A stretch of DNA of 51,853 nucleotides from a bacterium (GCA_963663405.2 CAXXSM010000129.1:1-51853); one strand, 5' to 3'; positions 7,404 through 35,916 are shown, counted from the first letter of the stretch. The notes: generated from the sequence alone by a model not told the origin. Numbers and translations: made by a program.

Positions 7404-7453
7404 CGACGATCAACATACTTTTAGCATTGGCCGTGACCGGCAAGTCTCCTAAC

Positions 7454-8323: not shown

Positions 8324-8589
8324 ATAATTTGAGGAGAAAATAGAAAAATGAATAGATTTCACAATTTTACCTTTCAACAGTGATAGACACCAAATGCGTC
8401 TGCCAACCACTACGAAAAAAAGCGCCAGAAAGGGAGGAACACTCATAAAGAAAGTAATCGAACTCGAAGGAAAAATCAAGAAAAAAGAACTTTGGCAACC
8501 CGTGATGAATACCGGAGAGATAGCCTTTAATATATACCAGTTATTCTATGAAGAAAACAACTTGAGGGAGAGCGATCATTGCGCAGAAA

Positions 8590-10129: not shown

Positions 10130-10345
10130 TTTTCGTCGATTATTGAATCTGTTTTTCATGGAGGAACAAAATGCCAACATATGAATATGAGCGCCAGCAA
10201 TGTGGCTATCGGTTTGTATGTTTTCAACGTATGACGGAAGAGCCTCTGAACACATGTTCTAAATGTTAGAGCGAAATAATCCGCGTAATTGGAATTGTGG
10301 AGGATTCCTGTTCAAAAGTTCCGGTTTTTATAACACGGATTATAA

Positions 10346-10445
10346 ACAATCCTCTACCCGTTGTAACCACAAAGTTCTTTGTTGTGGACGGGAAACGCAA
10401 TGCGTAACCCGTCCTTGTGACGATTAAAAAAGTAGAGAGGATTGT
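10346..10445 (+). promoter_or_regulatory. Candidate structured 5' leader that sequesters the RBS of the radical SAM gene
   Basis: ACAATCCTCT (10346-10355) is the exact reverse complement of AGAGGATTGT (10436-10445), which overlaps the SD. Inner stems: GGACGGG/CCCGTCC (10386-92/10408-14) and CCACAA/TTGTGG. Confidence 0.45.
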
Positions 10446-10450
10446 GAATC

Positions 10451-13825: not shown

Positions 13826-16800
13826 TTATTGCCCTTTCTTAATAATCTTTCCAATGTTTTCATGAGTATTTCTAAGCGATGCCTGTAGTTGTTGATGGAT
13901 CTTGAATCGGGAACCGTAATCAATCGGATCACCATGATACCCCAATTTCTCAAAGGGGAAATCGATCCCCTGAGCCGCTTGGCGATGTAGATCCTCGTCA
14001 ACAGATCTCATTCTTTCTTGGCTCTCATTGGATCGAGAATGGTGACAGGAGACACAGGTGGAGGAGGAATCGTGGCATTGATAACAGGATAGAGTTTTTT
14101 CCTTCGGCGCGACCTGGTGGTTGATCTTCCAATACATGGATGTTTGCACAAATTCGTACTGGCCAGAATAGTCTAATCCAACGCTCTTCATTCCGTCTTT
14201 GGACGCGCGATCCCAATCGTAATGTTTCCAATAACCTTTCCAGAGATTGGGAACGATCAGGTATTTGTAAACCGTATCGCTAATCTGCGTCGCTTTGTGA
14301 ATTTTAAAAGGCGCGATCTTGGCGGTTGGATCCTCGATCTCTCCGAGAGGCCTATTCAAGATTGTGACCCCATTGTCCACAATTCGGCCGCCCAATACAT
14401 ATCGTTCGTTTTTATCGTTATCCCATGCGAAGGCGGGAGAAACGTCTTTCTCCCAAACAAACGATCCCTTCTTTTTCGCGAAACGAGGCTTTCCATACGC
14501 ATCGGTTTCTTCGGGATGATCCAAACCGGCCTGAGACCAATCCCACTCCATCTTAGTGGGATTTCCACGAGCGAATTGAGGGATATGGCAGGTCTGACAG
14601 GCTAACGCCTCGGAATGAACGTTTAAGTGGTGATTCAGCATATTCGATCCGGTGTGCGGGTTTGCTGTATGGCAATCCTCACAAGAAATCCGCCCCTCTC
14701 GCGCGGGAATCGCTTGACAGGCTCCAGCAATCAGATGGTCTTCCGTAACGTGACAGTCCTGACACAAAAATCCATATTTACCCATATGAACGTCTAGTTC
14801 GGGCGCCGGTTGGCTTAACGATGAATCCATATCACCATGCTTGACCCCATCACCGCCCCCTCCGTAGAAATGACAAGCGCCACAATTATCCCGCCTGGGA
14901 TGACCAACGTTCTTCGCCACAGCGATCAGATCGATCCCTTCGACAGGGTACCCAGCTCCAGGAGGCGCTTTTTTATAGGTTCCGGTTGTGTCGTGGCAAA
15001 CAAGGCAGTCAATATTTCTCGCATCGCTGAAATCAAATGAATCGTCTTTCCAACCGTAACCGATGTGACACATCGTACACCGTTCCAGGTTTGAACCGAC
15101 GTGAATACAGTAGTTATTCAAAACCTGCTTTTTTCCAAGATCGTTGTGATGTTCGTATCCGCGCGTGTCCGGAGAAAGACCTTCCCAATTCCAATGCGCG
15201 GAACGCAAGATCGATTGACCAACCGAAGAATGACACGAAAGACACTCCATCGTAATCTCCTGCGGCGCCGCGTCATCCGAAAGTTGAATGAAGGATTGGT
15301 GGCCGGGAATATTACGCCGGTGGCATGAGGTACATGTCTGCGGGCCGGAATTTCTCTCGGCGTGGCAGTCGATGCATCGTTGATGAAAGGCGCCTTTGAG
15401 CCCGGGACGCGTAATCGCGTCCGGTTGCGCTGGGGAAGAATGACAAGCGTGACATACAACCGGTTCGATGTGGGAAAGATCGTTGCGCGAGATGGGATTC
15501 CCAACGCGGTCGTTTTCTGTTGCGGACGCGCGATGATGACAGACCGTGCAGTCTCCACTTTCGAGGGAAGCGTGTTTTTTGTGCATGAATCGCACGGTTC
15601 CAAAACGATCGGTCTCCCATTTCTCCGAAGAGCGGTCAAGCAACAATAGCGAGGGCATGGAATCCATTTTGTACGCCTGATCAGAAAACGCAGAGAACGG
15701 GTGAGCGAAATGGATAGCCAGCAAAAATGTAAAAATTGCTATGCTTTTTACACACGAAGAAACGGCGCCCGTTCTCTGCAAGTTGGAATGATCAGTTATT
15801 TTTGAACCTTCTTTTGAAGGTTGAATCGCTGGAAGCACTGGAAACAAGGTAACAAACAGCCGATAAAAGAAAACGATGGCTGAAATCAATCCGGCTGTAA
15901 TGGCGATTTCACCGATTGAAGGGGAATACGATGTTTTCGCGTAAGGGGGATGGTAACCCACGAGAAATACGTTAATGCGATTGAGAACCACGCCGAATAT
16001 AACCAAGGATGACGCAATGAAAAGTCCAGTAGCCGATTTGTATATTTTGGGAATAGTAAAAAGAATCAAGGGAACGGCGGCGCCCATAACAATCTCAACG
16101 ATAAAGGAGACACTATCCATATCAAAACGCATGGATGACCATGCTTGACAAACAAACAGATCGCCCATTTTTAGAATGAAATAGACTCCTAACAAATAAG
16201 GAATAAAACGGGCGAGTGGACTCAGAACGTCCAATTCCGGTTTCTGGCGAAACGAATGGGACGCGATCAGGGATTCGAAGATCACCATGGGAAACCCCAC
16301 CATCACAGCCGATGCGAGAAACAGTAAAGGAAGAATTGGGGTGAACCACAACGGATTGAGTTTTGACGGCGCGATCAATAACAACGCGCCCAGGGATGAT
16401 TGATGCATGCACGATAACACAACGCCCGCCAAAATGAACGCCGGCATAACTTTTTCCAGTTTTTGATGGAGAATACCGGCAGGCTTTTTCATCGATTCCA
16501 CGAACGGCGCCCAAATGCTTCCACGATCGACATGCTGGCGTACGCCTTCCAAGACAGCCGGTAAAAACTCGATAGAAAGAACGGTTAAATAGGTCATCAC
16601 ACAAATTCCGACTTCAAACAACACCGAGTCGCCTTGCCAGAAAATCATGGGATGCCAAATACTGTAATACCGGCCCAGATCAGCCAGCAAACCGATCGAC
16701 ACAAAGAGGTAGCCTAAAAAAGCCGTTAAAAGAGCAGGACGGACCACCCGATGAAAATGTCTGCGGTTAAAAACATATACCAACGCGGCCGTTGTGAAGC

Positions 16801-17011
16801 CGCCCGCCGCCAACGCGACGCCGGAGGCCACATCAATCGCGATCCAAATTCCCCAGGGATGTTGGTTGTCCAAGTTGGTGATTGCTCCCAGCCCAAAAAC
16901 GAACCGTGCGGCGGCGAAACATGCGCCGATGACCATGAACGCGATTAAAACGAATACACCGGCGGTGAAGAACGGACGATTCAAAGGCGCATGCAAAGAT
17001 GTATCGTTCAT
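13826..17011 (-). CDS. Fusion protein: NrfD/HybB(HmcC)-type quinol-interacting membrane domain + tetraheme cytochrome c3-like domain + octaheme tetrathionate reductase (OTR)-family domain; 13 CxxCH
   Basis: Approx. aa 1-395: 'PWGIWIAIDVASGVALAAGGF', 'DLGR', 'SVLFEVGIC', 'LSCMHQSSLGAL'. c3-like: 'VRFMHKKH...CTVCHH', CHACH, 'GLKGAFHQRCIDCH', CTSCH. OTR-like: CLSCH, 'HWNW', 'GKKQVLNNYC', CTMCHIGYGW, CLVCHD, CGACHFYGGGGDGVKHGD, CQDCH, CEDCH, CQTCHIP, 'WDWSQAG', CYQCH, plus one extra CVSCH. Confidence 0.88.
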   Translation of the reverse strand: MNDTSLHAPLNRPFFTAGVFVLIAFMVIGACFAAARFVFGLGAITNLDNQHPWGIWIAIDVASGVALAAGGFTTAALVYVFNRRHFHRVVRPALLTAFLGYLFVSIGLLADLGRYYSIWHPMIFWQGDSVLFEVGICVMTYLTVLSIEFLPAVLEGVRQHVDRGSIWAPFVESMKKPAGILHQKLEKVMPAFILAGVVLSCMHQSSLGALLLIAPSKLNPLWFTPILPLLFLASAVMVGFPMVIFESLIASHSFRQKPELDVLSPLARFIPYLLGVYFILKMGDLFVCQAWSSMRFDMDSVSFIVEIVMGAAVPLILFTIPKIYKSATGLFIASSLVIFGVVLNRINVFLVGYHPPYAKTSYSPSIGEIAITAGLISAIVFFYRLFVTLFPVLPAIQPSKEGSKITDHSNLQRTGAVSSCVKSIAIFTFLLAIHFAHPFSAFSDQAYKMDSMPSLLLLDRSSEKWETDRFGTVRFMHKKHASLESGDCTVCHHRASATENDRVGNPISRNDLSHIEPVVCHACHSSPAQPDAITRPGLKGAFHQRCIDCHAERNSGPQTCTSCHRRNIPGHQSFIQLSDDAAPQEITMECLSCHSSVGQSILRSAHWNWEGLSPDTRGYEHHNDLGKKQVLNNYCIHVGSNLERCTMCHIGYGWKDDSFDFSDARNIDCLVCHDTTGTYKKAPPGAGYPVEGIDLIAVAKNVGHPRRDNCGACHFYGGGGDGVKHGDMDSSLSQPAPELDVHMGKYGFLCQDCHVTEDHLIAGACQAIPAREGRISCEDCHTANPHTGSNMLNHHLNVHSEALACQTCHIPQFARGNPTKMEWDWSQAGLDHPEETDAYGKPRFAKKKGSFVWEKDVSPAFAWDNDKNERYVLGGRIVDNGVTILNRPLGEIEDPTAKIAPFKIHKATQISDTVYKYLIVPNLWKGYWKHYDWDRASKDGMKSVGLDYSGQYEFVQTSMYWKINHQVAPKEKTLSCYQCHDSSSTCVSCHHSRSNESQERMRSVDEDLHRQAAQGIDFPFEKLGYHGDPIDYGSRFKIHQQLQASLRNTHENIGKIIKKGQ

Positions 17012-23083: not shown

Positions 23084-23355
23084 CTCGGGTAGGTAATTTG
23101 AGATTTATTTGAGTGGTTATCATAACCATAATTCATTGGTAATGAGCCTGTGACACCTCCAAGAGTGTGAGTATTTCTTTATGAGTTTTAGTGAGATCAG
23201 CCGGAAAAATATTGATTGTATTTCCATCGGATCAAAACCTGACAGGGATATATTATCCCTGTTCAAGTCATACTCGTAAACAGGACCACTATGGAGATCA
23301 TTCAAACCGCTATTCCAATGATTCTGATGGCGCTTATATTGGCCTCTTCGCTATT

Positions 23356-23830
23356 TCATGTGGGTAGAGGGTAGAACCTCGAGAAGATTACATTCCAATT
23401 TTCCTCTGCCAAACAGATGGTTACGATCAACTTGTAGACGTTTCGATATCTGTTAAGCGACAAGTATTTTGCAGTAGGATTGCCCTCCATCGATCCGTTT
23501 GCGGGTCTGGATTTTATCGAAGAAAAAAGAACCATATCTTTATGTGCCGCATGCTTGTGGAGTCTGTGGTCAGGCGCCTCAATAATCTTTCTCATTCCCC
23601 CTAATCTTTCGCAGGTGGCTGTCCAAATCTTGTGGGCAAACCGGCAGGAACTTTCTCTTCTCACCCAGAGTATCGGCGGTTTGTCCATAAGATGGCAGAA
23701 TCCACAAGCCCTCACTCGTTCGGATTACTGATCATGAATCGCAGACCGGAGAGACTCAGCCGGTTTCATCCGGTGTCTTTTGCTTAGTTTGGCGGCTTGC
23801 CTGCAGAAACGGGAACGATTCAAGCCGTAT
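23356..23830 (-). pseudogene. Decayed 3' part of a second, diverged ISL3 transposase
   Basis: 'ANGSMEG...RYRNVYKLIVTICL...LPT*' aligns with the intact copy's 'NNGLLEG...GYRNVNNLITTIYL' and runs into the IR. The upstream boundary is approximate. Confidence 0.7.
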
Positions 23831-23832
23831 TA

Positions 23833-25086
23833 CTATTTCGTGTGGGGCGAGGGAAGAACCTTGGGAAGATTGAATTCCAACTTGCTTCCAATCAAATAGA
23901 TGGTAGTGATTAAATTGTTGACGTTGCGATAGCCTCTCGCACGGGCCTTGGCGGCTTGGATCAGGCTATTCATCCCCTCCAACAGACCATTGTTGATTCG
24001 CGAAGTAAACCAACGCACCACACCAGCCCAGTGCTCCTTGATCGTTTTCGCGGCCTTGATCATAGGCTCAATCCGGCTGTGAGTCGCCCAATAATACCAC
24101 TTTTTAAGAAACGATTCCCCCTCCTCCGGATCGTCGAACGAAAACACGTCTTGGAACACGGATCGCAGATGGTAGGCTTTCACCGTCTTCAATTTGCTCC
24201 CTCGTACATCTTGAAAAATTTCGTTCCGTTTCTTCTCTTGCTTGTCCGTGAGATTCCATTCATTCTTCAGCCAAATATACTTCGTCCCCTTCAATAATTC
24301 GGGATAAATCGCTTGGTCTTGTTTGCGCACTTCGTCCACAGCTTGATTGATAATCCTCATCAGGTGGTATTCATCAAATGTCATTTCGGCGGCCGGGAAA
24401 TTGGCTTCAATCCCGGATTGAAACGCCTGGGACATATCCAAACAAAATTCCTCCACCTGCTCCGCCTTTCCGTTATGCGTCTCTAAATCCTCTTTGAACG
24501 CCCCCACCGTTTGAGCGTCCTTTCCATCGGTGGCAAACATCACGCTGCGCTCGTCCAAATCCATGAATACGCTGACATAATTGTGCCCTTTGGCCTTTGA
24601 GGTCTCATCCACCCCCACCGCCTTCACTCCCGAAAAATCCTCCCTCTCTCGCGCGTCCATCACATAATGAGTCAGCACTCGCCAAATCAGCGTGTCATAT
24701 TCTCCGACCACTCGGCTGATCGCATTGGCCGTCATCCCATTCTCCGCCAGTGCCATGACCAACGCTTCAAATAACAACGTAAATCCCGCCCCCGGACGGG
24801 CCCAGGGAAGATTCACTGTCTTGACTTTATGATTGGGACATTTCACACGAGGTTGCCGGGCGTGTAAATACGTCTCATACTGAAAGAAATTCAGATGCCT
24901 CCAAGTGCGTCGTTTCGTATCATGCACTCCACACAGGTTCCCGCATTCGGGACAGGGAAACAGACTCCCCTCGGGAAAGTCCAGCGTGAGGTGCAAGGTT
25001 TTTTCTTCCTCAGGAAACTCGGCCTGGACGACCTGCCATGGCTCACTCAAACCTAACGCTAACCGGAATAATTCTTGGTTCTTCAT
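23833..25086 (-). CDS. ISL3-family transposase
   Basis: 'LALGLSEPW', Zn finger 'CPECG', 'RTWRHLNFFQYETYLHARQPRVKC', 'VGVDETS', 'LDMSQAF', 'FDEYHL', 'NGLLEGMNSLIQAAKARARGYRN'. Confidence 0.95.
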   Translation of the reverse strand: MKNQELFRLALGLSEPWQVVQAEFPEEEKTLHLTLDFPEGSLFPCPECGNLCGVHDTKRRTWRHLNFFQYETYLHARQPRVKCPNHKVKTVNLPWARPGAGFTLLFEALVMALAENGMTANAISRVVGEYDTLIWRVLTHYVMDAREREDFSGVKAVGVDETSKAKGHNYVSVFMDLDERSVMFATDGKDAQTVGAFKEDLETHNGKAEQVEEFCLDMSQAFQSGIEANFPAAEMTFDEYHLMRIINQAVDEVRKQDQAIYPELLKGTKYIWLKNEWNLTDKQEKKRNEIFQDVRGSKLKTVKAYHLRSVFQDVFSFDDPEEGESFLKKWYYWATHSRIEPMIKAAKTIKEHWAGVVRWFTSRINNGLLEGMNSLIQAAKARARGYRNVNNLITTIYLIGSKLEFNLPKVLPSPHTK

Positions 25087-25618
25087 TCTCTTCCTTCTCT
25101 CTCTCTCTCTCTCTTGGGATTGGGATCTTTGCCTTTAGCCTGGGCGGAGGATCGGACCTTGCGGGGACGCGAACTGAGTGCTGACCAAGAAGACTGTCGA
25201 AGGACGGTCTAGCACCGCCCTTCTTGTTAGTTTATCTCGTCGGGATTGGTACGTAAGCGATATATCTTCGGGAGGATGGAGGAAAGCCTTCCCCAAATCT
25301 ACCCACTCGATTCAGCGAAGAGCCTTATATTGTCTGCGCGTTGGGCGGGTAGGGATCGGATCTGAATATTGCTAAACTTTTTGGGCCGACATGAACTGTA
25401 AACGGCGGACCAAAAAATGAATAAATAATAGAAGAAAAAACGACGGTTCAAAAGTGAAGTATATAAAAGCCGACATCTGGAAGAAACCATCCAAGAGAGA
25501 ATTAATTGGGTAACATTTATAGATAATATGGATTTGGTATATTGCACCCGCATAATGAATTATGATCAACTCGTTTTCGCTGGCAGTTTTCCATAATCCA
25601 AGACAGAGAGAGACAACC

Positions 25619-26599
25619 ATGATGTTCATGATTACATTAATTCTTTTATTAACGATGGGATCGATTGCGACAGCCGAACCTACGGTATTCAAGTCATGGG
25701 AGTTTAATAGGTGGAACGATCCGCAGGGCTGGAATGTGCCTCCAGCGTTTGGAGGATCCATTACCGGAGAGGGGATTTGGCTGCATATCCAAATGATGCC
25801 GGAACATATTCAGGAACTTTCGTGGCGTCAACTCATTTGGTTGCCGCATCCTCCATTGTCTTTAGTCTCACCCTCAGGTCTTAGTATTGATACAACTTGC
25901 GCCTCAAAGGTTCGGTTACGTGTCTTGAACCAATCTCCTGAAACGGATGGCTTGTTGATTTGGCGTACGGCTACTGCGCCGGACACGAATGCGGGCACCG
26001 TGCGTTTCACAATGCATCCGATGTGTAACAGGTGGCAGGATGTGGTGGTTGACCTGGAGAACCAGTGGTCGGGTATTGTGGATCAGATACATATATTGCC
26101 GGCGCTGATTGGCTCTTCGGGTGACATGTGGATCTCGCGGATTGCTGTGACTGACGGAATTCCTGCCCCGAAAAAGGCGCGTCCGGACGTGGCTAGCACA
26201 GCTGTCGTTCCCAGGATTACGTTGCCGTCTATTGACCAGCCGGCATTTGCCGATGCGTTCAAAGTGCTTGACGAGTGCCTAATTAACAATGTACCTGTCC
26301 ACGGTTTTACCGAACCGGTCATGGGACCGGGTGGGGCCTATGGAGAAAACTGGTGGCAACTGGATTCGTCTTTGACGTGCGATGGCGCGAAGTGGGCCAA
26401 CCAGTCTTTCGCGGAAGGAACGCTTCGCGGATTCGCTTCGGTGCAGTCGCAAAATCCGGACGGCAGAATCGATCTGTGGGGTGGCGCTCCAAGCCGGGGA
26501 ATGCCTGCTTTGGCAAGTAGCATTCCACGGCTTTTCGAGGTGGGCTATCGGATAGCGCGACGTAGCAGCGATGACGAGAGTAAGACGATTGGCGTTTGA
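25619..26599 (+). CDS. N-terminal part of a secreted (alpha/alpha)6 glycoside hydrolase (GH63/MGH1-like); frameshifted
   Basis: Signal peptide MMFMITLILLLTMGSIATA; beta-rich N-domain; 'PGGAYGENWWQLDSSL', 'FASVQSQNPDGRI', 'SSIPRLFEV'. Confidence 0.7.
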   Translation: MMFMITLILLLTMGSIATAEPTVFKSWEFNRWNDPQGWNVPPAFGGSITGEGIWLHIQMMPEHIQELSWRQLIWLPHPPLSLVSPSGLSIDTTCASKVRLRVLNQSPETDGLLIWRTATAPDTNAGTVRFTMHPMCNRWQDVVVDLENQWSGIVDQIHILPALIGSSGDMWISRIAVTDGIPAPKKARPDVASTAVVPRITLPSIDQPAFADAFKVLDECLINNVPVHGFTEPVMGPGGAYGENWWQLDSSLTCDGAKWANQSFAEGTLRGFASVQSQNPDGRIDLWGGAPSRGMPALASSIPRLFEVGYRIARRSSDDESKTIGV

Positions 26600-27606
26600 G
26601 GTTCTCAGTAAGTATCTGGATTGGTGGCTTTCTCCGGTCAAGCAGTGACACGCAAACCGGTCTGATTACCTATGTTTTTGAAGAGAGTTTCTGTGAGCCT
26701 ATAGATACTCCGCAGACGATGGCTCCAGTCGATCTGCAGGTAGCCGTTGCGATTGGATGCGCCTACGTGTCTGAACTTGCGGAATGGGTAGGCGAGGCCA
26801 AAGCGGCGGCTCGGTACCGGAAGGCCTTTGAAGATCTGAAGAATGCTATCAATAAGTATTGTTGGGATGAGGATGAAGGAGCGTACTACAACTTTAATGT
26901 AAAGACGTTAACGCGCAGCAAACGTCTGATCGTATCGACGTTTGATCCATTGCGGCTTGGTATTGCGCCAAATGAACGTATTCCACGGCTTTTGGAGAAA
27001 CTTACAGATCCAGCGCTTTTCAATTGGGGTATCCGGCCACTAACGAGCCTTGCTAAGACGGAACAGGACTACGTGGAGGCTGAAGGTCCCTATGACGGCC
27101 GGGCATGGTTTGGTGACATCTGGACGATGCGCAATCTGCCTGTAATTTTTGGGTTGCGAGACTGCGGACAGGACGAACTCGCGGCGCAACTGGCGTGGGA
27201 CACGGTAAGAACTTTTCATGCAAATTATGCTGAATATGTGACACCATCCAACGGGAAGGGAGAAGGTGTTAGGAGGTACGGTTGGTCGGCTTCTCAGTAC
27301 ATTCAGACCGTGATTGAGCATGTTTTTGGCATTGACTATGATGCGGTAAAAAAACGCCTGAGCATTGTACCGCTTCTGGTCCCCGATCTTCGTATGTGTC
27401 GTATTGCGATTGAGGGATTGAAGTTGCCGACACCAGAAAACTCACGGCTATCGGTCGTGATTGTTCCACAGGAAAATGGTGAAACCGTAGTTGAAGTGGC
27501 GGTGGAGTCTGTACCCCTTGGAGTTTCGTTAGTAATTAGGCTTGACGGTGTAGTACATGAAATGCCACTTGGTTCCGATCAACGGATTGTTATTAAGCAG
27601 AGGTAA
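26596..27606 (+). CDS. C-terminal part of the same GH63/MGH1-like hydrolase
   Basis: 'APVDLQ', 'AINKYCWDEDEGAYY', 'FDPLRLG', 'WGIRPLTS', 'WFGDIW', 'YAEY...GEGVRRYGWSAS'. A third frame bridges the two ORFs: 'RRLAFEVLSKYLDWWLSPVK'. Confidence 0.75.
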   Translation: MRFSVSIWIGGFLRSSSDTQTGLITYVFEESFCEPIDTPQTMAPVDLQVAVAIGCAYVSELAEWVGEAKAAARYRKAFEDLKNAINKYCWDEDEGAYYNFNVKTLTRSKRLIVSTFDPLRLGIAPNERIPRLLEKLTDPALFNWGIRPLTSLAKTEQDYVEAEGPYDGRAWFGDIWTMRNLPVIFGLRDCGQDELAAQLAWDTVRTFHANYAEYVTPSNGKGEGVRRYGWSASQYIQTVIEHVFGIDYDAVKKRLSIVPLLVPDLRMCRIAIEGLKLPTPENSRLSVVIVPQENGETVVEVAVESVPLGVSLVIRLDGVVHEMPLGSDQRIVIKQR

Positions 27607-27826
27607 AGCCTATCGTTACATCAGCCCAATGGGATGCTGGCTAAAGTTGTAAGGTCAAAAAAGTCGAGTAAACTGTAACTAACCTTCTTAAAAAGACTTG
27701 GAAAAATGACTCATCCATGATTTCGTCCCATTGACATACTGCTTCCCTGCTTAGATTCTATAGCACTTTGAATACGGGGAAACGATGAATTTCATTTTAC
27801 AGCCATGGCGCCTCTTATTACCCACC

Positions 27827-27868
27827 GTCACAGTAGGGACGCAGGTTTCTCGGCGTTTCTACCGTGAC
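27827..27868. repeat. REP-like (GTAG-type) imperfect palindrome
   Basis: GTCACAGTAGGGACGC-aggtttctcg-GCGTTTCTACCGTGAC; 16-bp arms with 2 GU pairs and 1 mismatch. Confidence 0.5.
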
Positions 27869-28299
27869 ATTGAGATTTACGGCTCTTCAACTTGCGGTTA
27901 AACTGCACCATTACAGAACTATGAGGGACAATTGCAATTAAATTTCTCTCGTTTTCAATCAATTGGAATTGATTAAAATCAAATCCAATACATTTGAAAT
28001 TTAGACGACTGAAAATTTATTCATTTAAAGTGATCCTTGCGGCTACTGGTTTATATGAAAATGAGTTTCTGATTCTTGCTCATTCGAGATTTGAGATATC
28101 ATCCAGGACTCATCTTCATTTGCAGTTGTGATCTCGATCATGATCGCTTATATGAAAGCAATCGGAGAGACGCATTCGCAAATTGGCCTTGGAAGAATCG
28201 AATCAAATTTTGCGTTGAGAGTGGGATTAAATATCTGATGAATGAGTTGACCATTAGGAAAACTGTGAATTTCCTGTTGGGATTGAGGGAGTTGATTTT

Positions 28300-30807
28300 G
28301 TGGCACGGAAGAAGCGCAAGAAAAACAAAACAAAGCAGAACCTTGAACCAGTGACTCTGGAAGGCGTCAAGGAATTACTCGCCGAAAAGAAAATTCCGCA
28401 AGCCTTGGAGATGGCCAAACGGTTAGTGCGGGAATCGCCAAGCCCTGAAGCCGAGACATGCCTGGCGCGGATTTACCAGGAACGAATCCGGGAATTGCAG
28501 GAGGCTGGCTTAACGCAGGACGCCAAAAATCTAATCGAAGTCGCCAAACTTAAGTGTCCCATACACAAGAAGGAATTCGAATCGCTGTTAACGGAAACAT
28601 ATTGTTTTCCTTTATCCCATACTGAAGTCTCAACAATTGTATCGCTTCTGCAACAATCTCAGTGTGATGAAACCACTCGAATCCGTCTTCTCGAAACCTT
28701 GAAGACCGGTTTGTCCGATCCCCGCCATTTACTGAACGCTTCTGGCAATACATTATTCCATGAAGACGCCATCCGGGTTTGGCAAGCGCTGGAAGCCAGT
28801 GGCGCCGCGGTTTCCGAATCGGAACGGAAACGGAGGATGGACCGATTGACGCAAGTGTCCCGGCGATCTCCACTTGCGCCCTGGTGCTTTTTTGTTCGCG
28901 CTTTAGACGCGTACTATCACTTCGAAGACGCGCGCGCAAAGGCGTTTCTTGACCGGATCCCTGATGGGATTGCGCTTTCTCCCGCGAAAACGGTTCTAAT
29001 AAGCAAACTGAATGGGCGGCTAAAACCGGACGCGTTGTCTTCCAAGCCCACCCGGGATTTATGGAAAGCCCTTACGCAGGAGGGGCCGCGAACAGTTTGG
29101 TTTGATCTGATGCGGACGATTGAAACAGAAAACCGGCGCGCGATCCGGACGAAGGTCCGGCAAACCCTGCAAGCGGATTGGTTAGCGTCACCCTACAAGA
29201 TGCGCGCGGCAACGCAGTCAATTCGCGAGAAAATGTTTGACGCCGCTTTTTGCGATTCAGAAATTGAGAAAGAATTAATACACACAATAAAAATGCAATG
29301 GGGGGAAAATGGGGAATTGATCGCCGCTCTAGACGCTCAACGAATATATGGGAGAGTCGAACCGTTTGAAGCCGCCGAATTCCTGGAATTGCTCGAAGAA
29401 AAGTGGGAAAAGTCCCTCTCCAAGAAAGAGCGGGCGATGATTCTTGCCCAGGCGGCGGAATTGTACAAAGTTGATGAAGTCCACTATTCAATGCCTTTTT
29501 CTTTTTTTGATTCTCCTCCTGAAACGGATCATGAAGACTCGATCAATGTATACAAAAAAGTCTGCCGGCTCGATCCCCGGCCGGAATATTTCAGGCCATT
29601 GCTGACCCTTTTGCGGGAAGATGGGAGAAAACTCAAAGAGATTGAATCTCTGCTCACTAAATGGTGTAAAACCAATCCAACCGATTGCGAACCTTGGATT
29701 CGTTTATTCGAGGACGCGGAAAAGCGTGGGGCTCTTCAAAAATCGTTGAAATTCTTAGAAGAAGCCGAACGTCTCGACCGGCTGAATCAAAATGTGCGTG
29801 ACGCCCGTCACCGGTTGGTTTGGCAAATGGCGCTGAAGCATTTCAAACAAAAGAAATTCCATCTTGTAGAGCGGGATCTAAACCATATTCGTTCAAACGA
29901 AATCCCACCGGTTAAACAAGCGTTGTTCCACGGTTTAGAACGCTTTCTTCTCTTATGTCAAGACGAATCCGATCCAGGAACCGGGGAATCCCATCCGGTC
30001 TTTGATGCGATTTTATTGCGCCATCTTAATAATCTCTCGAACGCGGGGCTTGATAAGAAGCTCGATTGTGCGGCGCCATTAGGCGATCTCGATGAGGGCT
30101 CCAAACTGCAGGCGTATTACGATTTGCGGGAGGCGTTGGAAACTGTGGGAGATACGCCATATATGCCGTCGAAATGGTTCGAGCGGTTTCCTGGATGGAT
30201 CGCTGAGGCGCGGGGTCTCACAGATGATCTGCTTCTTCGAATATCGAAAACCATCCTCACCAATGGAATCCCGGATGTCGTCATCGCCGCGACTGCCCGT
30301 GGCTTGGAGAAAGACACCTCCCGTATTCGCGATTATCTGTTTTACCGGGCGCTGGCCTTATGGAAAGATAATCCCTATGAAGAATGGGATGTGGAGGAAT
30401 GTCTGCGAGCCGTCATCACGCTATGCCGCGCGAGAGGGGACTATGAATTGGAACGGCAAGCGATCGACGCGCTGCAAAATATTCGGCGTCATCAGTTAAG
30501 CGCGAGGATTTTTGAGGAGGAGGAAAGCGGTGAACCGGAATTGGAACTGGAGCCGGAAGAATTGTCCCGCGTGATTCAGCGGGAACGCGAACGTTTCAAG
30601 CCACTCACTCCCCAAGAAAAAAAGCGGGCGGAGAAAGCTAGAAGGAAAAAGACGGGTAAGGAATTGTTGAAATTAGTGCGGGCGTTCGAAAAAGCCAAAA
30701 AATTGGAGCGCATGCAATTAGAAGAGGAATTCGAGGAAGAATTGGACGATCTGGATGAAATCGTTGAAGAAAATGACAAAGATGATTTGCAGCCGTTGTT
30801 GTGGTGA
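28300..30807 (+). CDS. Large alpha-helical/TPR-like hypothetical protein, first gene of the Hsp70 operon
   Basis: 835 aa from a GTG start; helical-repeat-like segments ('ALEMAKRL', 'PTDCEPWIRLFEDAEKRGALQKSLKFLEEAERLDRLN'); basic N-terminus and very acidic C-terminus. Confidence 0.8.
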   Translation: MARKKRKKNKTKQNLEPVTLEGVKELLAEKKIPQALEMAKRLVRESPSPEAETCLARIYQERIRELQEAGLTQDAKNLIEVAKLKCPIHKKEFESLLTETYCFPLSHTEVSTIVSLLQQSQCDETTRIRLLETLKTGLSDPRHLLNASGNTLFHEDAIRVWQALEASGAAVSESERKRRMDRLTQVSRRSPLAPWCFFVRALDAYYHFEDARAKAFLDRIPDGIALSPAKTVLISKLNGRLKPDALSSKPTRDLWKALTQEGPRTVWFDLMRTIETENRRAIRTKVRQTLQADWLASPYKMRAATQSIREKMFDAAFCDSEIEKELIHTIKMQWGENGELIAALDAQRIYGRVEPFEAAEFLELLEEKWEKSLSKKERAMILAQAAELYKVDEVHYSMPFSFFDSPPETDHEDSINVYKKVCRLDPRPEYFRPLLTLLREDGRKLKEIESLLTKWCKTNPTDCEPWIRLFEDAEKRGALQKSLKFLEEAERLDRLNQNVRDARHRLVWQMALKHFKQKKFHLVERDLNHIRSNEIPPVKQALFHGLERFLLLCQDESDPGTGESHPVFDAILLRHLNNLSNAGLDKKLDCAAPLGDLDEGSKLQAYYDLREALETVGDTPYMPSKWFERFPGWIAEARGLTDDLLLRISKTILTNGIPDVVIAATARGLEKDTSRIRDYLFYRALALWKDNPYEEWDVEECLRAVITLCRARGDYELERQAIDALQNIRRHQLSARIFEEEESGEPELELEPEELSRVIQRERERFKPLTPQEKKRAEKARRKKTGKELLKLVRAFEKAKKLERMQLEEEFEEELDDLDEIVEENDKDDLQPLLW

Positions 30808-30833
30808 ACGCCGCCAGTGGGGAGGAATGACTG

Positions 30834-31157
30834 ATGTTGGATCCGTATGAAGAACTGGGCATTGATCCAGAGCAGGTGACCGACGAGACGGTCCGTCAAG
30901 CGTATGTGAATTCGATCCGCATGAATCCACCGGACCGTGATCCAGCGGCGTTTGAGCGAATTCAAACCGCGTATGGGTGGATCAAAGACGAGCACAGCCG
31001 CTTGCGTCTTAAATTGTTCGGATTTGAAAGCGATCAAATGGTGTTCGATAATCTCCCGGATTCAAATGAACGGCCCCGTGTGGACGCCGGGAAATGGTTA
31101 ATTGCGATCGAGGCGGAGGCGAAACGGCAGGAAGGTCCGAATCCATATGGAAAATAA
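30834..31157 (+). CDS. Small J-domain (DnaJ-like) protein with non-canonical motif (NPPD)
   Basis: GGAGG SD; 'DPYEELGI...TDETVRQAYVNSIRMNPPDRDPAAFERIQTAYGWIKD...R'. Confidence 0.85.
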   Translation: MLDPYEELGIDPEQVTDETVRQAYVNSIRMNPPDRDPAAFERIQTAYGWIKDEHSRLRLKLFGFESDQMVFDNLPDSNERPRVDAGKWLIAIEAEAKRQEGPNPYGK

Positions 31158-32007
31158 CCAGATGAATCCGGCCGGGAGAGAGCCAGTCAACGCATCCACT
31201 GGAGACGCGGGTGATTGTGGGGATAATCTAGTTAACGGTAGAATCGTTCCGGATGAACTCTTGAAAACGGCGGCGGCGGAGTTGCTCAAGCGCCTCCAAG
31301 AACCAGAATCGTGGCCGGAAGAATTGATCCATCCAGAAGACGAATCTCCGGAAAAGCCCGATGTGTACACGTTGTTTGAAGCGTTAACCGCCTTGCGCCA
31401 AGAAATCTCGATGCAGGGACGCGCGTTTCATAAATTGGAACAAAGTCTCAGTCAGACACTCACTATTCCAGAGCGCGTTCAATCCGTTGAAGAACAAATG
31501 CTTTCATTTCAAGAGGCGTTCATTCAATTGCAAACAACGATTGAGTCGAGCGCTTCTCAAGCATTGGCTGCGGAGCGCCAATCCGGAAGGGACGAGGGCT
31601 GGAAAGAGGCGTTTGATTCGTTCATCGATCCCCTGTTGGATACCCACGACCAGCTATATCGGTTGGTGGAGCGGAATCAGCAACGCTCGCAACAACGCAA
31701 GGGGTGGTTTCCATGGCCGATGACAAAAAGCGATTCAGGAGAACTTCTGGAGACACTTCGCTTAAGCCTGAAGAAAATGGACCAGCGGTTGAGTGTATTC
31801 GGCGTGACTCCGTTGGCCAAAGTTAGTATGGAATTCAATCCCGAAACAATGAAAGCAGTGGAAATGATACAGTCCAATGAATTGCCTGGAAATACAGTCG
31901 TTGAGATTTACCGGCAAGGCTATCAAAAAGATGGCCGGACGCTTCGTTTCGCCGAAGTAAAAGTCGCCTGTCCTTCCCCAAAATGGATAGCGAAGAAAGA
32001 TGAGTGA
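31147..32007 (+). CDS. grpE: GrpE-family nucleotide exchange factor with extended N-terminal coiled coil
   Basis: C-terminal 'FNPETMKAVE...PGNTVVEIYRQGYQKDGRTLRFAEVKVA'; N-terminal 'PDVYTLFEALTALRQEI'. The ATG at 31147 overlaps the end of the J gene. Confidence 0.82.
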   Translation: MENNQMNPAGREPVNASTGDAGDCGDNLVNGRIVPDELLKTAAAELLKRLQEPESWPEELIHPEDESPEKPDVYTLFEALTALRQEISMQGRAFHKLEQSLSQTLTIPERVQSVEEQMLSFQEAFIQLQTTIESSASQALAAERQSGRDEGWKEAFDSFIDPLLDTHDQLYRLVERNQQRSQQRKGWFPWPMTKSDSGELLETLRLSLKKMDQRLSVFGVTPLAKVSMEFNPETMKAVEMIQSNELPGNTVVEIYRQGYQKDGRTLRFAEVKVACPSPKWIAKKDE

Positions 32008-32098
32008 ATCTCATATTCAAATGACTATGAATTAATGGATCGCATTCGGGAGTAGTTAAGAAACGTAGTTTTATCATGAAATTGTGGGGTACGAAATA

Positions 32099-33904
32099 AT
32101 GACACAGAATCCAAATCCTGCCGATGACGGGTCTGATGTGATCGTGGGGATCGACTTGGGCACGACAAACTCTCTCGCCGCAGTTTATGAGAACGGTGAG
32201 GTGAGAATAATTGAAATCGATGGCAGTCCTTTGCTGCCTTCCTATGTAGGTTTATCTCCCTCGGATGAATTATTGGTAGGCCGGCCGGCATTGAACCAGT
32301 ATATCTTGTATCCAGAACGAACGGTCAAATCAGTCAAGCGCCGGATGGGGGGAACGGAGCCGATTGAACTTGGTGAGCGTTCATTGCTTCCGGAAGAGAT
32401 TTCCGCATTGATCTTGGGACGTCTGAAGGCGCAGGTCGAATCAGTCTTGGGTAAACCTGTTAACCAAGCGGTCATTACCATCCCCGCTTATTTTAATGAT
32501 ACGCAACGGCAAGCGACACGCGCGGCGGGTGAGATCGCAGGATTAAAGGTGGCCCGGATTTTCAATGAACCGACCGCCGCGTCTCTCGCGTTCCGCAATA
32601 GTGTTCTTTCTTCAGCCCAAACACAGAGCGAGATTTCCGCCGTGTACGATCTTGGTGGAGGAACGTTTGACGTGTCCATTGTCCGGGAAGAGAATGATGT
32701 GACCGAAGTGCTTGCCAGCCATGGTGACACCCGGTTAGGAGGCGATGATTTCGACCGGATGATACTGGACCATTTTTTAGCGTATATCCAACAAGAGTAC
32801 AAAGTCAATCTGCGGGAAAACCGGCGGGCGTTAAACCGGCTGACCCATGCGGCGGAGGCCGCCAAAATTGAACTGAGTTCTCATCCCTTCGTCCATGTTG
32901 TGGAAGAAGACTTGGGAGAGGGAGATGGCCCTTCGATTCACTTGGATCTTGAGTTAACAAGGGAACAGTACGAAGAGATGATTCGTTCCAAGATTGACCG
33001 GACTGTAGAATGTGTCGAACAGGCGTTGCGGGACGCGAAATTATCCCCCTCGCAGGTTGACAATGTTTTGCTGGTAGGCGGTTCAACCCGGACGCCTCTT
33101 GTCCGGGAAGTCTTGAAGGATTTATTTCAGAAAGAACCGCGTTCAGAAGTGCATCCTGACATGTGTGTGGTGATGGGAGCCGCTTTACTCGCCGCCCGCA
33201 TTCAGGGATTGGAGGTCGAACGGATCCTGGTTGACATCACCCCTTATACGTTTGGTGTCGCCTGTGTTCATATCGAGGAAGATGGATTTCCCAATCCTCA
33301 TTTTTTCTCCCGGATTATCCCCCGCAATACGCCACTGCCAGTAAACCGATCCAATGAATTCAGCACCCTAGTCGATAATCAGGAAGCCGTCCGGATCGAC
33401 ATCTACCAAGGGGAAAACGATGATGTCCGTCATAATACGAAAATCGGAACGTTTCTCGTCGAAGGCTTATCCGCTGTGCCTGCGGGGAACATTATAATTG
33501 ATCGGATGTCGCTCGATCTGAATGGGATTCTTACGGTTACTTCCGTGGAGAAACGGACAGGATTGCAAAAATCGATCAAAATCGAAGGGGCGTATCAACC
33601 GAAAAAAGCCGAAGACATCATCGAATCGCAATCCCGTCTTGCTGATATCATTTCATCGCCTCTTTCAGATCAAACCAGTGCAGTGGAAACGATGACGGAG
33701 GAAGATTCTACGTTTGTCAATCTATCGAACGAGCACCGGGAGATATTGGATAAAGCCCGTTCCATTCTTGACCGGATGCATCCCGACGATAAAGAAGAGG
33801 CGGAGGCGCTCTGCGCTCAAGTCGAACAACTCGCCTCAGAAGGAAAAGAGTACGAAGCGCCTTTGAATGAACTGCAGGAACTTTTGTATTTTGTTGGAGA
33901 ATGA
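32099..33904 (+). CDS. Hsp70/DnaK-family chaperone (specialised paralog)
   Basis: GIDLGTTNS, TIPAYFND, IFNEPTAA, VYDLGGGTFDVSI, LGGDDFD, LLVGGSTRTP; SBD 'IIPRNTPLP...DNQEAVRIDIYQGE'; divergent linker 'ILVDITPYTFG' and short lid. Confidence 0.93.
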   Translation: MTQNPNPADDGSDVIVGIDLGTTNSLAAVYENGEVRIIEIDGSPLLPSYVGLSPSDELLVGRPALNQYILYPERTVKSVKRRMGGTEPIELGERSLLPEEISALILGRLKAQVESVLGKPVNQAVITIPAYFNDTQRQATRAAGEIAGLKVARIFNEPTAASLAFRNSVLSSAQTQSEISAVYDLGGGTFDVSIVREENDVTEVLASHGDTRLGGDDFDRMILDHFLAYIQQEYKVNLRENRRALNRLTHAAEAAKIELSSHPFVHVVEEDLGEGDGPSIHLDLELTREQYEEMIRSKIDRTVECVEQALRDAKLSPSQVDNVLLVGGSTRTPLVREVLKDLFQKEPRSEVHPDMCVVMGAALLAARIQGLEVERILVDITPYTFGVACVHIEEDGFPNPHFFSRIIPRNTPLPVNRSNEFSTLVDNQEAVRIDIYQGENDDVRHNTKIGTFLVEGLSAVPAGNIIIDRMSLDLNGILTVTSVEKRTGLQKSIKIEGAYQPKKAEDIIESQSRLADIISSPLSDQTSAVETMTEEDSTFVNLSNEHREILDKARSILDRMHPDDKEEAEALCAQVEQLASEGKEYEAPLNELQELLYFVGE

Positions 33905-33911
33905 GACCGGG

Positions 33912-34202
33912 ATGGATGCCATAGATCTCAAAAAACTCTTCGAAACGCCAGCGCTCTCCTGTCCCACTTGCGGCGTAAAATGGAGCGGACAGACAAATTG
34001 CAGACGTTGCGGAGCGGATTTATCGTTGTTGCTGAAAACCGCATCCCTGGCGTGGGAATTAAGAAACCGCGCCCGCTTGAATTTATTAGCGGGCGAATTT
34101 GAAAAATCAATTCATTACGCGCGGAAAGCCCAAACATTTCATAAAACCGTGTACGGTGAACTGATCGAACGATTCGCAGCGTACGGGCTGACGATAGTAT
34201 GA
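33912..34202 (+). CDS. Small Zn-ribbon + helical (TPR-like) protein
   Basis: 'CPTCG...CRRCGADLSLL', then the amphipathic helices 'AWELRNRARLNLLAGEFEKSIHYARKAQTFH'; starts 7 nt after the Hsp70 stop. Confidence 0.78.
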   Translation: MDAIDLKKLFETPALSCPTCGVKWSGQTNCRRCGADLSLLLKTASLAWELRNRARLNLLAGEFEKSIHYARKAQTFHKTVYGELIERFAAYGLTIV

Positions 34203-34421
34203 AAAAGGAAGGAACTTTCATTTGAGTTTTAAAACGAAATAGTAGCAGTTTTATCCGTGAAGTTTTGAGATATTATTTTGTTCATATAAAAACAAATCGT
34301 GCAATGATCGTGCAACGTGAGGGGGGTCTGAAGGTACTCTGAGGGTGGTGTCAACGTGAGGGCGAGGTTTTTAAGTGTTTGTAAGTCTTTAATTTACAGC
34401 AAGTTAAAAATTTGATCGAGG

Positions 34422-34469
34422 TGACTCTGGATCAGGAAGCTGCAGGTTCGAGCCCTGCCTCCCCAGCCA
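34422..34469 (+). tRNA. 3' half of tRNA-Gln(CTG): att-site scar, not a full tRNA
   Basis: TGACT-CTG-GATCAGG...GCAGGTTCGAGCCCTGC-CTCCCCAG-CCA gives the anticodon loop, T-arm and 3' acceptor strand with CCA. No D-arm or 5' acceptor strand upstream. Confidence 0.8.
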
Positions 34470-34637: not shown

Positions 34638-34796
34638 CTATTCTTCATTATCTACTGGGATATTCATTACAAGTAATTCACCAACTAATTCATCAACATG
34701 CTTTTCTAATTCAATAATCTCTTGTTCTAATTCTTGGTCGTTATATTTAGCAACCAATTCACGAATTCTTTTAAATCTTGATTTTTCATATTTCAT
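34638..34796 (-). CDS. Small AT-rich hypothetical protein (52 aa)
   Basis: Not in the ORF track. MKYEKSRFKRIRELVAKYNDQELEQEIIELEKHVDELVGELLVMNIPVDNEE*, downstream of GAGAGG. Confidence 0.5.
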   Translation of the reverse strand: MKYEKSRFKRIRELVAKYNDQELEQEIIELEKHVDELVGELLVMNIPVDNEE

Positions 34797-34825
34797 TTTT
34801 CACTCATTCCTCTCTTTCTGTTCGC

Positions 34826-35377
34826 TCCATACCGAATCCGGACACGGGCCGTATTTACACTCTAGTACGTCCAGGATGAGGCACCATGTTTGCGTCATTT
34901 TTTTTACTAATCGGAATAACCTCCCTTGGAATGGGGATTAAAATCATCACTGCAATTTCGACTTGGCCCCCTATACTTTCTATTAAACGATCTATCACAT
35001 TTTGGGCAACGAAACGAGTGGTCTCCGTTACTTAATTCTTTCATTCTTAGGTGGATGGCTTTTTTTTCATTATCCCAACACAGAGGGCAATAAGGTGTTT
35101 TTTCTCCTTCAATAAAGTACATTCCCTTATCATCATCGAAATCCATCTTCCCCTTCAATTCGAGTTTCTCTTTAAGTGAATGGATTTCATCCTTAAGAAC
35201 CTGGTTTTCGTTCGTAAGGTCAAATAGTTGTTTCTGTCCTTCAAGGATTTCCTGATTTAATTCTGCGTTTTTATATCCGATTGCAATGTCATAGATAGAT
35301 TTGAAGGTGTCCAAAATCCCCATTCTCTCACCTCTCTTCCTTTTCGTTCCATACCGAATCCGGACACGGGCCGTATT
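34826..35377. repeat. 30-bp exact direct repeat inside ~80-bp similar blocks
   Basis: TCCATACCGAATCCGGACACGGGCCGTATT at 34826-34855 and 35348-35377; partial similarity over about 34803-34887 vs 35327-35409. Confidence 0.9.
34907..35323 (-). CDS. Phage-type hypothetical protein: coiled coil + Zn ribbon
   Basis: 138 aa; 'LFDLTNENQVLKDEIHSLKEKL'; 'PYCPLCWD...FRCPKC'; SD GAGAGG; low GC. Confidence 0.75.
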   Translation of the reverse strand: MGILDTFKSIYDIAIGYKNAELNQEILEGQKQLFDLTNENQVLKDEIHSLKEKLELKGKMDFDDDKGMYFIEGEKTPYCPLCWDNEKKAIHLRMKELSNGDHSFRCPKCDRSFNRKYRGPSRNCSDDFNPHSKGGYSD

Positions 35378-35594
35378 CAGCTTCGAGTTTTTCCAGGATG
35401 AAGCGCCATTGGTTAGGCGTATTTCTCCTCACCCAGCCGTCGAGCGTCTGTTTCGGGATATCCAATACCTTCGAAAGCGTGATAAGGCTCTGTCTGCGGG
35501 ACGGCTCACCAATGTTATCAAGGTACCAGCGGAACTTGGACTGAAACTCATTCTTACCGTCCTCAGGGCGAAGTGTTGGCTCAATCGGTGTCAT
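35328..35594 (-). CDS. Small HTH-like DNA-binding protein (phage repressor-like)
   Basis: 'LITLSKVLDIPKQTLDGWVRRNTP' resembles an HTH; divergent from a consensus promoter. Confidence 0.6.
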   Translation of the reverse strand: MTPIEPTLRPEDGKNEFQSKFRWYLDNIGEPSRRQSLITLSKVLDIPKQTLDGWVRRNTPNQWRFILEKLEAEYGPCPDSVWNEKEER

Positions 35595-35703: not shown

Positions 35704-35916
35704 TAATGGAAATGAGCAATATGAATTGCTATGGTGGAAAAATGAATTCTTCGTATTCCCAGATTCAAAGTGAATGCCATAGAATCGAGGTAGGGAAGCG
35801 GTATGTCAATTGGCCGAATTCATGGATGTGTCTTTTTTCCAAGTCTTTTATTTGACTATACGCCAAACCTAACAGGGAAAATGTATCCGAATTTGATGAC
35901 TAACTTTCAAGCCTGA

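Follow-up and report, generated by a model that had tools for sequence, protein, structure and literature searches.

The DNA considered here is a bacterial contig of 51,853 bases (GCA_963663405.2 CAXXSM010000129.1; C129 in our numbering), analyzed as a whole and referred to as the window. It carries five adjacent genes for an 835-aa tetratricopeptide repeat (TPR)-like protein, a J-like protein, a GrpE, an Hsp70, and a small zinc-ribbon protein, and the locus raises the question of whether such a set is a spare DnaK system or a chaperone machine of its own. The assembly to which the contig belongs comprises 8.44 Mb in 170 contigs and is 82% complete. A preliminary description, made from the sequence alone, had pictured the five genes as a mobile, non-housekeeping Hsp70 machine with the TPR-like protein as its client or sensor, possibly serving phage defense. 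Our analysis indicates that the cassette is a conserved specialized Hsp70 machine, uncharacterized in the literature searched, which gave no description of it (a survey of bacterial J-proteins, Barriot et al. 2020, lay outside this search). As judged by co-folding, the role of the TPR-like protein seems to be that of a platform for the J-like co-chaperone rather than that of a client or sensor.

Five genes conserved as a unit

ORF calling placed five tightly packed open reading frames (ORFs) at positions 28300-34202, all on the plus strand with intergenic gaps of 26, -11, about 91, and 7 nt (Table 1), in agreement with the co-oriented and closely spaced genes first described. The 11-nt overlap of gene 3 with gene 2 was assigned because the starts of the orthologs match M16 of the gene 3 ORF (31147). 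The 96-aa length given earlier for the last protein is likewise obtained from its likely start, M16 at 33912, which lies 7 nt past the Hsp70 stop codon within an ORF that opens at 33867 (111 aa).

Table 1. Coordinates of the cassette genes and of nearby features in the window
Feature	Position	Strand	Description
Gene 1, platform	28300-30807	+	835-aa TPR-like alpha-solenoid, putative platform; ORF without Pfam family, described by AlphaFold2 (AF2) and Foldseek
Gene 2, J-like	30834-31157	+	107-aa J-like protein with NPPD replacing HPD; conserved C-terminal tail (residues 53-99)
Gene 3, GrpE	31147-32007	+	GrpE paralog with N-terminal extension; ORF opens at 31102 (301 aa)
Gene 4, Hsp70	32099-33904	+	Divergent full-length Hsp70; ORF opens at 32084 (606 aa), likely start M6
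Gene 5, zinc ribbon	33912-34202	+	96-aa protein; zinc ribbon (CPTC...CRRC) and three-helix TPR-like unit
Repeat A, dispersed	27649-27819	+	About 170 bp; approximately 10 copies in the genome
Repeat B, high-copy	28047-28157	+	About 110 bp; 140-250 bp upstream of gene 1
att-arm-like segment	34276-34421	+	Short internal repeats; starts 73 bp past the operon
tRNA-Gln(CTG) 3' fragment	34422-34469	+	48/48 identical to positions 29-76 of the intact gene on contig C28

The occurrence of the cassette was followed through its platform gene. Eight of the 19 other genomes in the family encode the platform, and a search of 21 more distant genomes found it in none. Profile searching across the phylum, represented by 35 genomes in the collection, returned the same eight and the window's own genome, with 0 of 15 outside the family. 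In one genus, the platform was found in one genome and was missing from another that is 98% complete. Within the family, all five genes stand in order at five loci, while a sixth locus keeps the first four genes on a contig that ends after the Hsp70 and two further loci are cut inside gene 1. One platform homolog led to two Planctomycetota loci with an identical five-gene order, and the platform was detected in 9 of 301 genomes of a Planctomycetota sample in which two candidates per genome were scored. Eight new Planctomycetota loci all had the platform, J-like, and GrpE genes in order, and seven also had the Hsp70 gene, the remaining one being cut after GrpE. When 16 loci were compared all against all, the platform, GrpE, and Hsp70 were found in 16 and the J-like and zinc-ribbon proteins in 15; only these five families were common to more than two phylum-spanning loci, the other clusters being antisense ORFs over the Hsp70 gene. 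The flanks of the cassette were not conserved, save for three upstream genes common to two genera. Thus, the five-gene order is conserved across genomes, with complete copies at five loci of the family and likewise in Planctomycetota, and the earlier assignment of the TPR-like protein to the chaperone machine is borne out by the conservation of the five genes as a unit. Two metagenome scans with distant platform homologs gave no matches.

The cassette Hsp70s form a clade of their own

The gene 4 product matched the Pfam HSP70 family at 470 bits, with the nucleotide-binding domain (NBD), linker, and substrate-binding domain (SBD) all present, and its residues 20-503 aligned to solved DnaKs at an E-value of 1.6e-106. 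Its scores were under the cut-offs of the NCBIfam equivalogs for DnaK (484.5 vs 648 for NF001413; 475.7 vs 822.55 for TIGR02350) and for HscA (391 vs 708.55), and isc genes were absent from the scanned ORFs of the window. The genome encodes a housekeeping grpE-dnaK pair on contig C76 (896.8 and 164.4 bits, compared with 416.5 for the best-scoring cassette stretch), as well as weaker Hsp70-like genes on contigs C40, C89, C45, and C23. On C89 (89130-92871), a third GrpE-like gene adjoins an Hsp70-NBD-like gene of 388 aa, together with a small TPR protein and two genes that have no annotation.

A phylogenetic tree was built from 26 Hsp70 sequences, leaving out the divergent proteins of C40 and C89 and a protein on contig C94 of a Tepidisphaeraceae genome. 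The 15 cassette Hsp70s from both phyla formed one group (support 100/100); the housekeeping DnaKs of the two phyla (100/99) and a set of paralogs typified by a cluster on contig C165 (100/100) grouped apart from it. When E. coli DnaK, HscA, and HscC were added, the cassette group remained intact (Shimodaira-Hasegawa-like approximate likelihood ratio test, 97), with DnaK, HscA, and the C165 type on the other side; the single HscC sequence had a branch length of about 3 and joined neither group, such that a deep link to HscC cannot be judged. The gene 4 product is 44% identical to a planctomycete cassette Hsp70, 39% to the DnaK of its own genome, and 35%, 37%, and 38% to E. coli DnaK, HscC, and HscA, respectively. 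The description of this Hsp70 as a non-housekeeping paralog is thus upheld by its separate clade and by the high-scoring grpE-dnaK pair on C76.

Residues of functional importance were then compared in E. coli numbering between the 15 cassette Hsp70s and 14 others in the alignment. The catalytic residues D8, T11, K70, E171, D194, T199, and D201 were retained in all 15, as were R167 and N170, and a superfamily member with this full set is predicted to be ATPase-competent. By contrast with the 14 other Hsp70s, all of which have Q at position 378, the cassette Hsp70s uniformly have L. Further changes were (i) E206 to R/K in 10 of 15; (ii) D477 to a non-acidic residue in 14 of 15; and (iii) V389, the first linker residue, to Q/R/K/H in 15 of 15. 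All 15 also are missing the NBD lobe-I segment 76-101, have an 8-9-residue insertion in loop L1,2 of the SBD-beta, and are without a disordered C-terminal tail, their conserved end being ELLYFVG. The 285-295 loop, which is a gap in E. coli HscC and HscA, is retained in all 15, and this fits a dedicated GrpE. In Mayer's review on Hsp70 systems (PMC8215388), R167 and Q378 are given as the partners of DnaJ D35, L391 as the partner of H33, and E206, D211, E217, and D477 of DnaK as acidic DnaJ contacts. Since the J-like partner is altered on its side as well (see below), these changes suggest a co-evolved Hsp70/J pair without cross-talk to DnaK and DnaJ.

These data also bear on whether the cassette merely backs up DnaK, either redundantly or under particular stresses, and acts on general clients. 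The full-length Hsp70 with intact catalytic residues, the GrpE of its own, and the large 8.4-Mb genome with several Hsp70 relatives would suit such a role, and in PMC8265645, SglK of Myxococcus xanthus is described as not heat-induced, yet able to complement an E. coli dnaK mutant. We consider a back-up role very unlikely, however, as the cassette has no canonical J-protein, its Hsp70s changed both the J-interface and the substrate-binding loop in all 15 members, its linkage to two unannotated partners is strict across phyla, and its scores are below the NCBIfam DnaK cut-offs.

The J-like protein is predicted to dock in the platform

The 107-aa J-like protein scored 26.5 bits against Pfam DnaJ (PF00226), just under the cut-off of 27.8, with a clear likeness at the level of the fold; a word-index search returned only the protein itself. 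The "PPD" motif noted earlier was confirmed by alignment of N31-P32-P33-D34 to Y32-H33-P34-D35 of E. coli DnaJ, in which P32 takes the place of H33, while the basic residues K26 and R27 are replaced by V and N. His-Pro-Asp (HPD) was present in 0 of 15 cassette J-like proteins; instead, all 15 have a loop of the form [H/Y/N][P/G]PD, and P32, P33, and D34 were invariant in 7 of 7 aligned sequences.

Co-folding of the platform with the J-like protein, run on our own 7-row alignments, gave an interface score (ipSAE, interaction prediction score from aligned errors) of 0.77 (0.76-0.78 in three runs), and none of the three controls exceeded 0.00. The three runs agreed in at least 79% of their contacts, and the predicted local distance difference test (pLDDT) score of the partner was at least 76. 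Of 80 solved complexes, 58 attain the mark used for this score, as do 2 of 110 mismatched pairs, a calibration that is only roughly applicable to a run on our own alignments. In the models, residues 1-6 and 53-99 of the J-like protein contact platform residues 103-429. Nine of the ten invariant J-like residues beyond position 52 lie within this interface, while helices I-III and the PPD loop are left free. The model supports, as a prediction, docking of the C-terminal tail of the J-like protein in the TPR platform.

The 835-aa platform itself matched no Pfam family. Its AF2 model is an all-helical solenoid (pLDDT 78.5), for which the best Foldseek matches were the TPR superhelices of Ctr9, Ski3, IFT-A, and APC subunits, with E-values down to 3e-6, in accord with the TPR-like character proposed for it; template modeling (TM) scores were low, as expected because solenoids are flexible. 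A profile search over 1.84 billion entries detected 1267 cluster representatives of the platform family at E ≤ 0.001 and 336 at E ≤ 1e-30. Of 20 representatives looked up, 7 clusters had a named member; the 9 named proteins, all but one "hypothetical," came by their source names from metagenome-assembled genomes (MAGs) of Tepidisphaeraceae, Deltaproteobacteria, Proteobacteria, and Lentisphaerae. Relatives in Deltaproteobacteria, Lentisphaerae, Acidobacteriota, and Verrucomicrobiota are assigned by names and Atlas leads only.

The platform encoded in the window has a polybasic N-terminus and an acidic C-terminal tail that ends in QPLLW; platforms of the same phylum also have a polybasic start, and an acidic run followed by a terminal Q-x-L-L-W was found in 5 of 6 readable ends (the seventh end was masked). 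Among 140 full-length platform representatives, 19 end in Q-x(1-2)-L-x(0-1)-[FWLYM] (QGSLF, QELLF, QLELF, and similar), compared with 4 of 3156 long ORFs of the genome, and a polybasic C-terminal tail was found in 61 of the 140, compared with 18 of the 3156; both figures overstate the effect because the sequences are related. The Q-x-L-L-W or Q-G-S-L-F ending appears to resemble the bacterial sliding-clamp-binding motif.

With its histidine replaced, the J-like protein might have a different role. In the mitochondrial import motor, J-like subunits without HPD (Pam16/Tim16) tether or restrain Hsp70, and the cassette protein might similarly do no more than tether or restrain the Hsp70 on the platform, with hydrolysis driven by client binding or by another J-protein. 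This would agree with the missing histidine in all 15 partners and with the three J-proteins of canonical score that are encoded elsewhere in the genome. According to PMC8215388, replacing the H or D of HPD abolished stimulation in every system tested. Counter to this explanation, neither the aspartate nor the proline after it varies, and all 15 Hsp70s keep R167, with which the aspartate pairs; the Q378L and linker changes on the Hsp70 resemble compensation more than loss; and no second J gene is conserved beside the cassette. On balance, a purely tethering J-like protein appears rather unlikely.

GrpE and the zinc-ribbon protein

The gene 3 product was recognized by Pfam GrpE (PF01025) at 79 bits against a cut-off of 25.8, over profile positions 11-164 of 165, and was below the cut-off for all NCBIfam GrpE equivalogs. 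The cysteines of the gene 5 product are invariant among orthologs, and its AF2 model (pLDDT 86.5) consists of a zinc ribbon followed by three helices that resemble one and a half TPR units (VIA-align Z-scores of 8.0-8.6, a range common for helical repeats). Foldseek returned no match for this protein at E ≤ 0.001. In Pfam, zf-DNL was absent and zf-HYPF and Zn_ribbon_3 were only sub-threshold; zf-DNL was not listed in the structural searches either, which does not exclude it.

A proposed mechanism and its relationship to known systems

Taken together, the five genes probably encode one self-contained specialized Hsp70 machine that is insulated, tethered to its platform, and devoted to one or more dedicated clients. 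Such a machine would run alongside the housekeeping DnaK system, insulated from DnaK. A groove in the N-terminal half of the platform (about residues 100-430) may hold the C-terminal tail of the J-like protein; if so, the pair would constitute a split TPR-J co-chaperone. With its [H/Y/N][P/G]PD loop, the free J-like domain could then recruit only the cognate Hsp70, whose J-contact surface would have changed in step. The Hsp70 is proposed to hydrolyze ATP because every catalytic residue is kept, and would be reset by its own GrpE, with the zinc-ribbon/TPR-like protein as a fifth obligatory subunit, perhaps an Hsp70 escort or adaptor. The altered SBD, with a loop insertion and without the tail, suggests that the clients are dedicated and few, perhaps a single one.

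Several observations weigh against this mechanism. Invariant platform residues are only mildly enriched in the predicted interface (12 of 59, vs 44 of 332 in that stretch), the co-fold score is a model confidence obtained from 7-row alignments, and no fused platform-J or platform-zinc-ribbon protein was found among 169 proteins compared. A J-like domain without the histidine may also fail to stimulate the ATPase at all. In addition, on one Phycisphaerales MAG contig (8001-13978) the platform, GrpE, and Hsp70 are each split into two or three frames, due either to decay or to assembly indel errors.

A parallel is found in the same genome. The C165 cluster (4816-10661) encodes a 425-aa protein with a J-like domain (NPE) fused to TPRs, followed by a 212-aa GrpE, a 592-aa Hsp70, and a 530-aa zinc-ribbon-TPR protein, an arrangement that parallels the proposed split design with the same order of roles and a similarly degenerate J-like motif. 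Profiles of genes 2 and 5 match the J-like and zinc-ribbon ends of the C165 proteins (hhalign probability, 80% and 85%). The C165 cluster is conserved in three relatives and its Hsp70s form their own clade; unlike the cassette, its J and TPR parts are fused and its Hsp70 is nearer to DnaK and keeps Q378.

Compared with canonical DnaK-DnaJ-GrpE, the cassette has the triad of Hsp70, J, and GrpE with the catalytic residues and R167 kept, but its J-partner is without HPD and without the glycine/phenylalanine (G/F) and zinc-finger domains, its Hsp70 has Q378L, and two extra obligatory proteins are present. The E. coli HscC locus (ybeQ-ybeR-djlB-ybeT-ybeU-djlC-hscC) is, by annotation, another case of a specialized non-essential Hsp70 beside its own J and TPR-like (Sel1) proteins. 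The cassette differs from this locus in that its J-partner has no HPD (DjlB and DjlC are presumed to carry one) and in having a single 835-aa solenoid and a zinc-ribbon protein as partners. HscC lacks the GrpE loop and is thought to be GrpE-independent, whereas the cassette Hsp70 keeps the loop and a GrpE gene accompanies it in 16 of 16 loci. The cassette clade does not include E. coli HscC in the tree, though HscC has a very long branch, and the 37% identity is like that to DnaK and HscA. Loss of 76-101, the L1,2 insertion, and a short tail are common to HscC and the cassette Hsp70, as judged from the alignment and from PMC8215388.

The mitochondrial Hsp70 motor includes Mge1 (GRPE), Tim44 as scaffold, and Pam16 as J-like subunit, and the parts of the cassette match this motor and its escort by role (scaffold tether, GrpE, HPD-less J-like protein, zinc partner), as an analogy only. 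The platform differs as a TPR solenoid that is not Tim44-like, and gene 5 gave no zf-DNL match, unlike Hep1/Zim17. According to the passage of PMC8347752 on this factor, HEP1 is a DNL zinc-finger partner that prevents self-aggregation of mtHsp70 and has no known bacterial homologue.

GTPase-centric conflict systems with GAP1-N2 provide a further likeness: Kaur, Burroughs, Iyer, and Aravind (2020; PMC7159879) describe systems in which HSP70 and GrpE, away from any heat-shock operon, are linked to proteins with DnaJ or TPR fusions. Their core consists of GTPases and proteins with FNIII repeats, and most of them come from Actinobacteria and Firmicutes. Neither a GTPase nor an FNIII gene was conserved with the cassette, as judged from the 16 loci and from Pfam analysis of the cassette.

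DnaK-DnaJ-GrpE takes apart a nucleoprotein complex in lambda and P1 replication, and the cassette could be imagined as a fourth kind of bacterial Hsp70 system next to DnaK, HscA, and HscC: a tethered remodeling motor with a J-like protein without histidine, an escort-like zinc ribbon, and address tags that direct it to DNA or the replisome to dismantle nucleoprotein. The tags would be interchangeable, either the terminal Q-x-L-L-W/Q-G-S-L-F peptide or the polybasic tail. We regard this extension as unlikely. For comparison, bacterial Hsp70s are grouped into three types and HPD is treated as indispensable in PMC8215388.

The cassette proposed here as a dedicated machine is widespread and strictly linked, with a cognate J-partner that never has HPD and an Hsp70 interface side that is altered in step. 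It represents a natural experiment on the triggering of Hsp70 by J-domains and on what keeps two Hsp70 systems separate within a cell, and supplies four unstudied partner proteins that are accessible to ordinary biochemistry.

Mobility of the cassette and the defense hypothesis

The operon had been described as ending about 220 bp before the 3' half of a tRNA-Gln. ARAGORN and Rfam found no tRNA in the window; a 48-nt tRNA-Gln(CTG) 3' fragment was located by comparison with the intact gene, which lies on another contig (C28) of the 170-contig assembly. The fragment starts 219 bp past the last stop codon of the operon, in keeping with that description. A direct repeat of the tRNA 3' end, as at the border of a tRNA-integrated island, is thereby present (48/48 nt), and in the usual geometry of tRNA integration an element would lie on the cassette's side of the fragment. 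Within C55:22988-25604, a second tRNA-Gln(CTG) 3' fragment (46 nt) has an integrase-like ORF on either side (380 and 401 aa), an arrangement suggestive of tandem integrations at tRNA-Gln. The region 34276-34457, which spans the att-like arm and the first 36 bases of the fragment, is 91% identical to C99:42270-42451; the C99 stretch continues into a tRNA-like 3' end different from the tRNA-Gln fragment, and a serine-recombinase-like gene comes next. The distance from repeat A to the arm is 113 bp in C99 and 6.5 kb in the window, with the cassette in between. An inverted copy of repeat A is located at 35728-35849, such that the two copies bracket the cassette, the tRNA fragment, and several small genes. 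One public contig joins these two copies on opposite strands.

Other observations speak against a present-day island. A Pfam scan of 30 window ORFs revealed no integrase, the only mobile gene of the window is an ISL3 transposase, and the G+C content is not distinctive. The left-hand 34 kb of the window contains respiratory, sugar, and amino-acid genes, and 10 proteins that flank the cassette at five further loci are ordinary ones such as RimK, an esterase, an epimerase, and AstB. Of the "mobile" label given to the cassette, what stands is that the operon is adjoined by an att-like arm and a tRNA fragment and that the paralogous C99 locus lacks the 6.5-kb stretch, while the missing integrase in the window and the ordinary neighbors elsewhere speak against it. 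Mobility is only weakly suggested, and the cassette is somewhat unlikely to be carried at present by an integrated element.

An anti-phage or conflict system on a mobile island, with the TPR protein as sensor, would account for the patchy spread (8/19 genomes of the family, 0/15 in the rest of the phylum, 1/2 in one genus, and 9/301 in Planctomycetota) and for the att-like arm and tRNA fragment 73-219 bp past the operon, with repeat and arm only 113 bp apart in C99. The active ISL3 element 3 kb upstream and the conflict systems of Kaur et al. (PMC7159879), in which HSP70 and GrpE go together with fusion proteins of DnaJ or TPRs, are also compatible with this possibility. However, PADLOC-DB 2.0 gave 0 families for four cassette proteins and only weak matches for the Hsp70 (PDC-M61B at E 1.7e-5 over a partial stretch; BrxA at E 0.0077), and PHROGs gave only weak matches for the cassette proteins. 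No nuclease, protease, pore, or NTPase effector-type domain was detected in the cassette, and there was no GTPase as in the systems of PMC7159879. With ordinary flanking proteins, no integrase in 30 window ORFs, and unremarkable G+C, we find a role in phage defense highly improbable; the suggestion made earlier is not supported, given the lack of meaningful PADLOC matches, of effector-type domains, and of defense genes among the neighbors examined.

Regulatory signals and neighboring features

Promoter and terminator scans were at chance level (10 vs 7.5 ± 2.6 and 6 vs 9.0 ± 2.8, respectively), Rfam gave one chance-level match and nothing else on the window, and a repeat scan detected no notable flanking direct or inverted repeats around the cassette. 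The controlling inverted repeat of chaperone expression (CIRCE), reported as missing from the window, was indeed absent at up to 3 mismatches; HrcA was not found in the whole genome (82% complete), and a missing hrcA or CIRCE in the window thus tells little.

Repeat B had 141 BLAST matches in the genome, is sometimes in tandem (C138), and showed excess depth and many loose ends in public runs. The public contigs compared with the window were from relatives at 90-99% identity; in one run, two joints skip 27769-34276, and these most likely represent a C99-like paralogous locus, not an empty allele.

To the right of the tRNA fragment (34638-35594, minus strand) are three small genes encoding proteins of 52 aa, 138 aa (two CxxC pairs and a coiled coil; phrog_1244, E 2.6e-8), and 88 aa, which look like the remnant of a phage-like element. 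Upstream of the cassette, 23336-25325 is an ISL3-family insertion sequence (417-aa transposase) that is apparently active because 13 further copies at 96.6-100% identity are found on other contigs. Next to it, at 25562-27606, a GH63/MGH1-like glycoside hydrolase is divided between two overlapping ORFs of 345 and 336 aa. Region 25344-27630 (2.3 kb) is 93% identical to C20:10389-12635, and positions 1-2079 of the window are 94% identical to C36; these near-copies reflect either genuine duplication or the presence of another strain in the bin. Farther to the left, 13826-17011 encodes a 1061-aa NrfD-like membrane subunit fused to multihaem cytochrome c domains, adjoining a 4Fe-4S protein.

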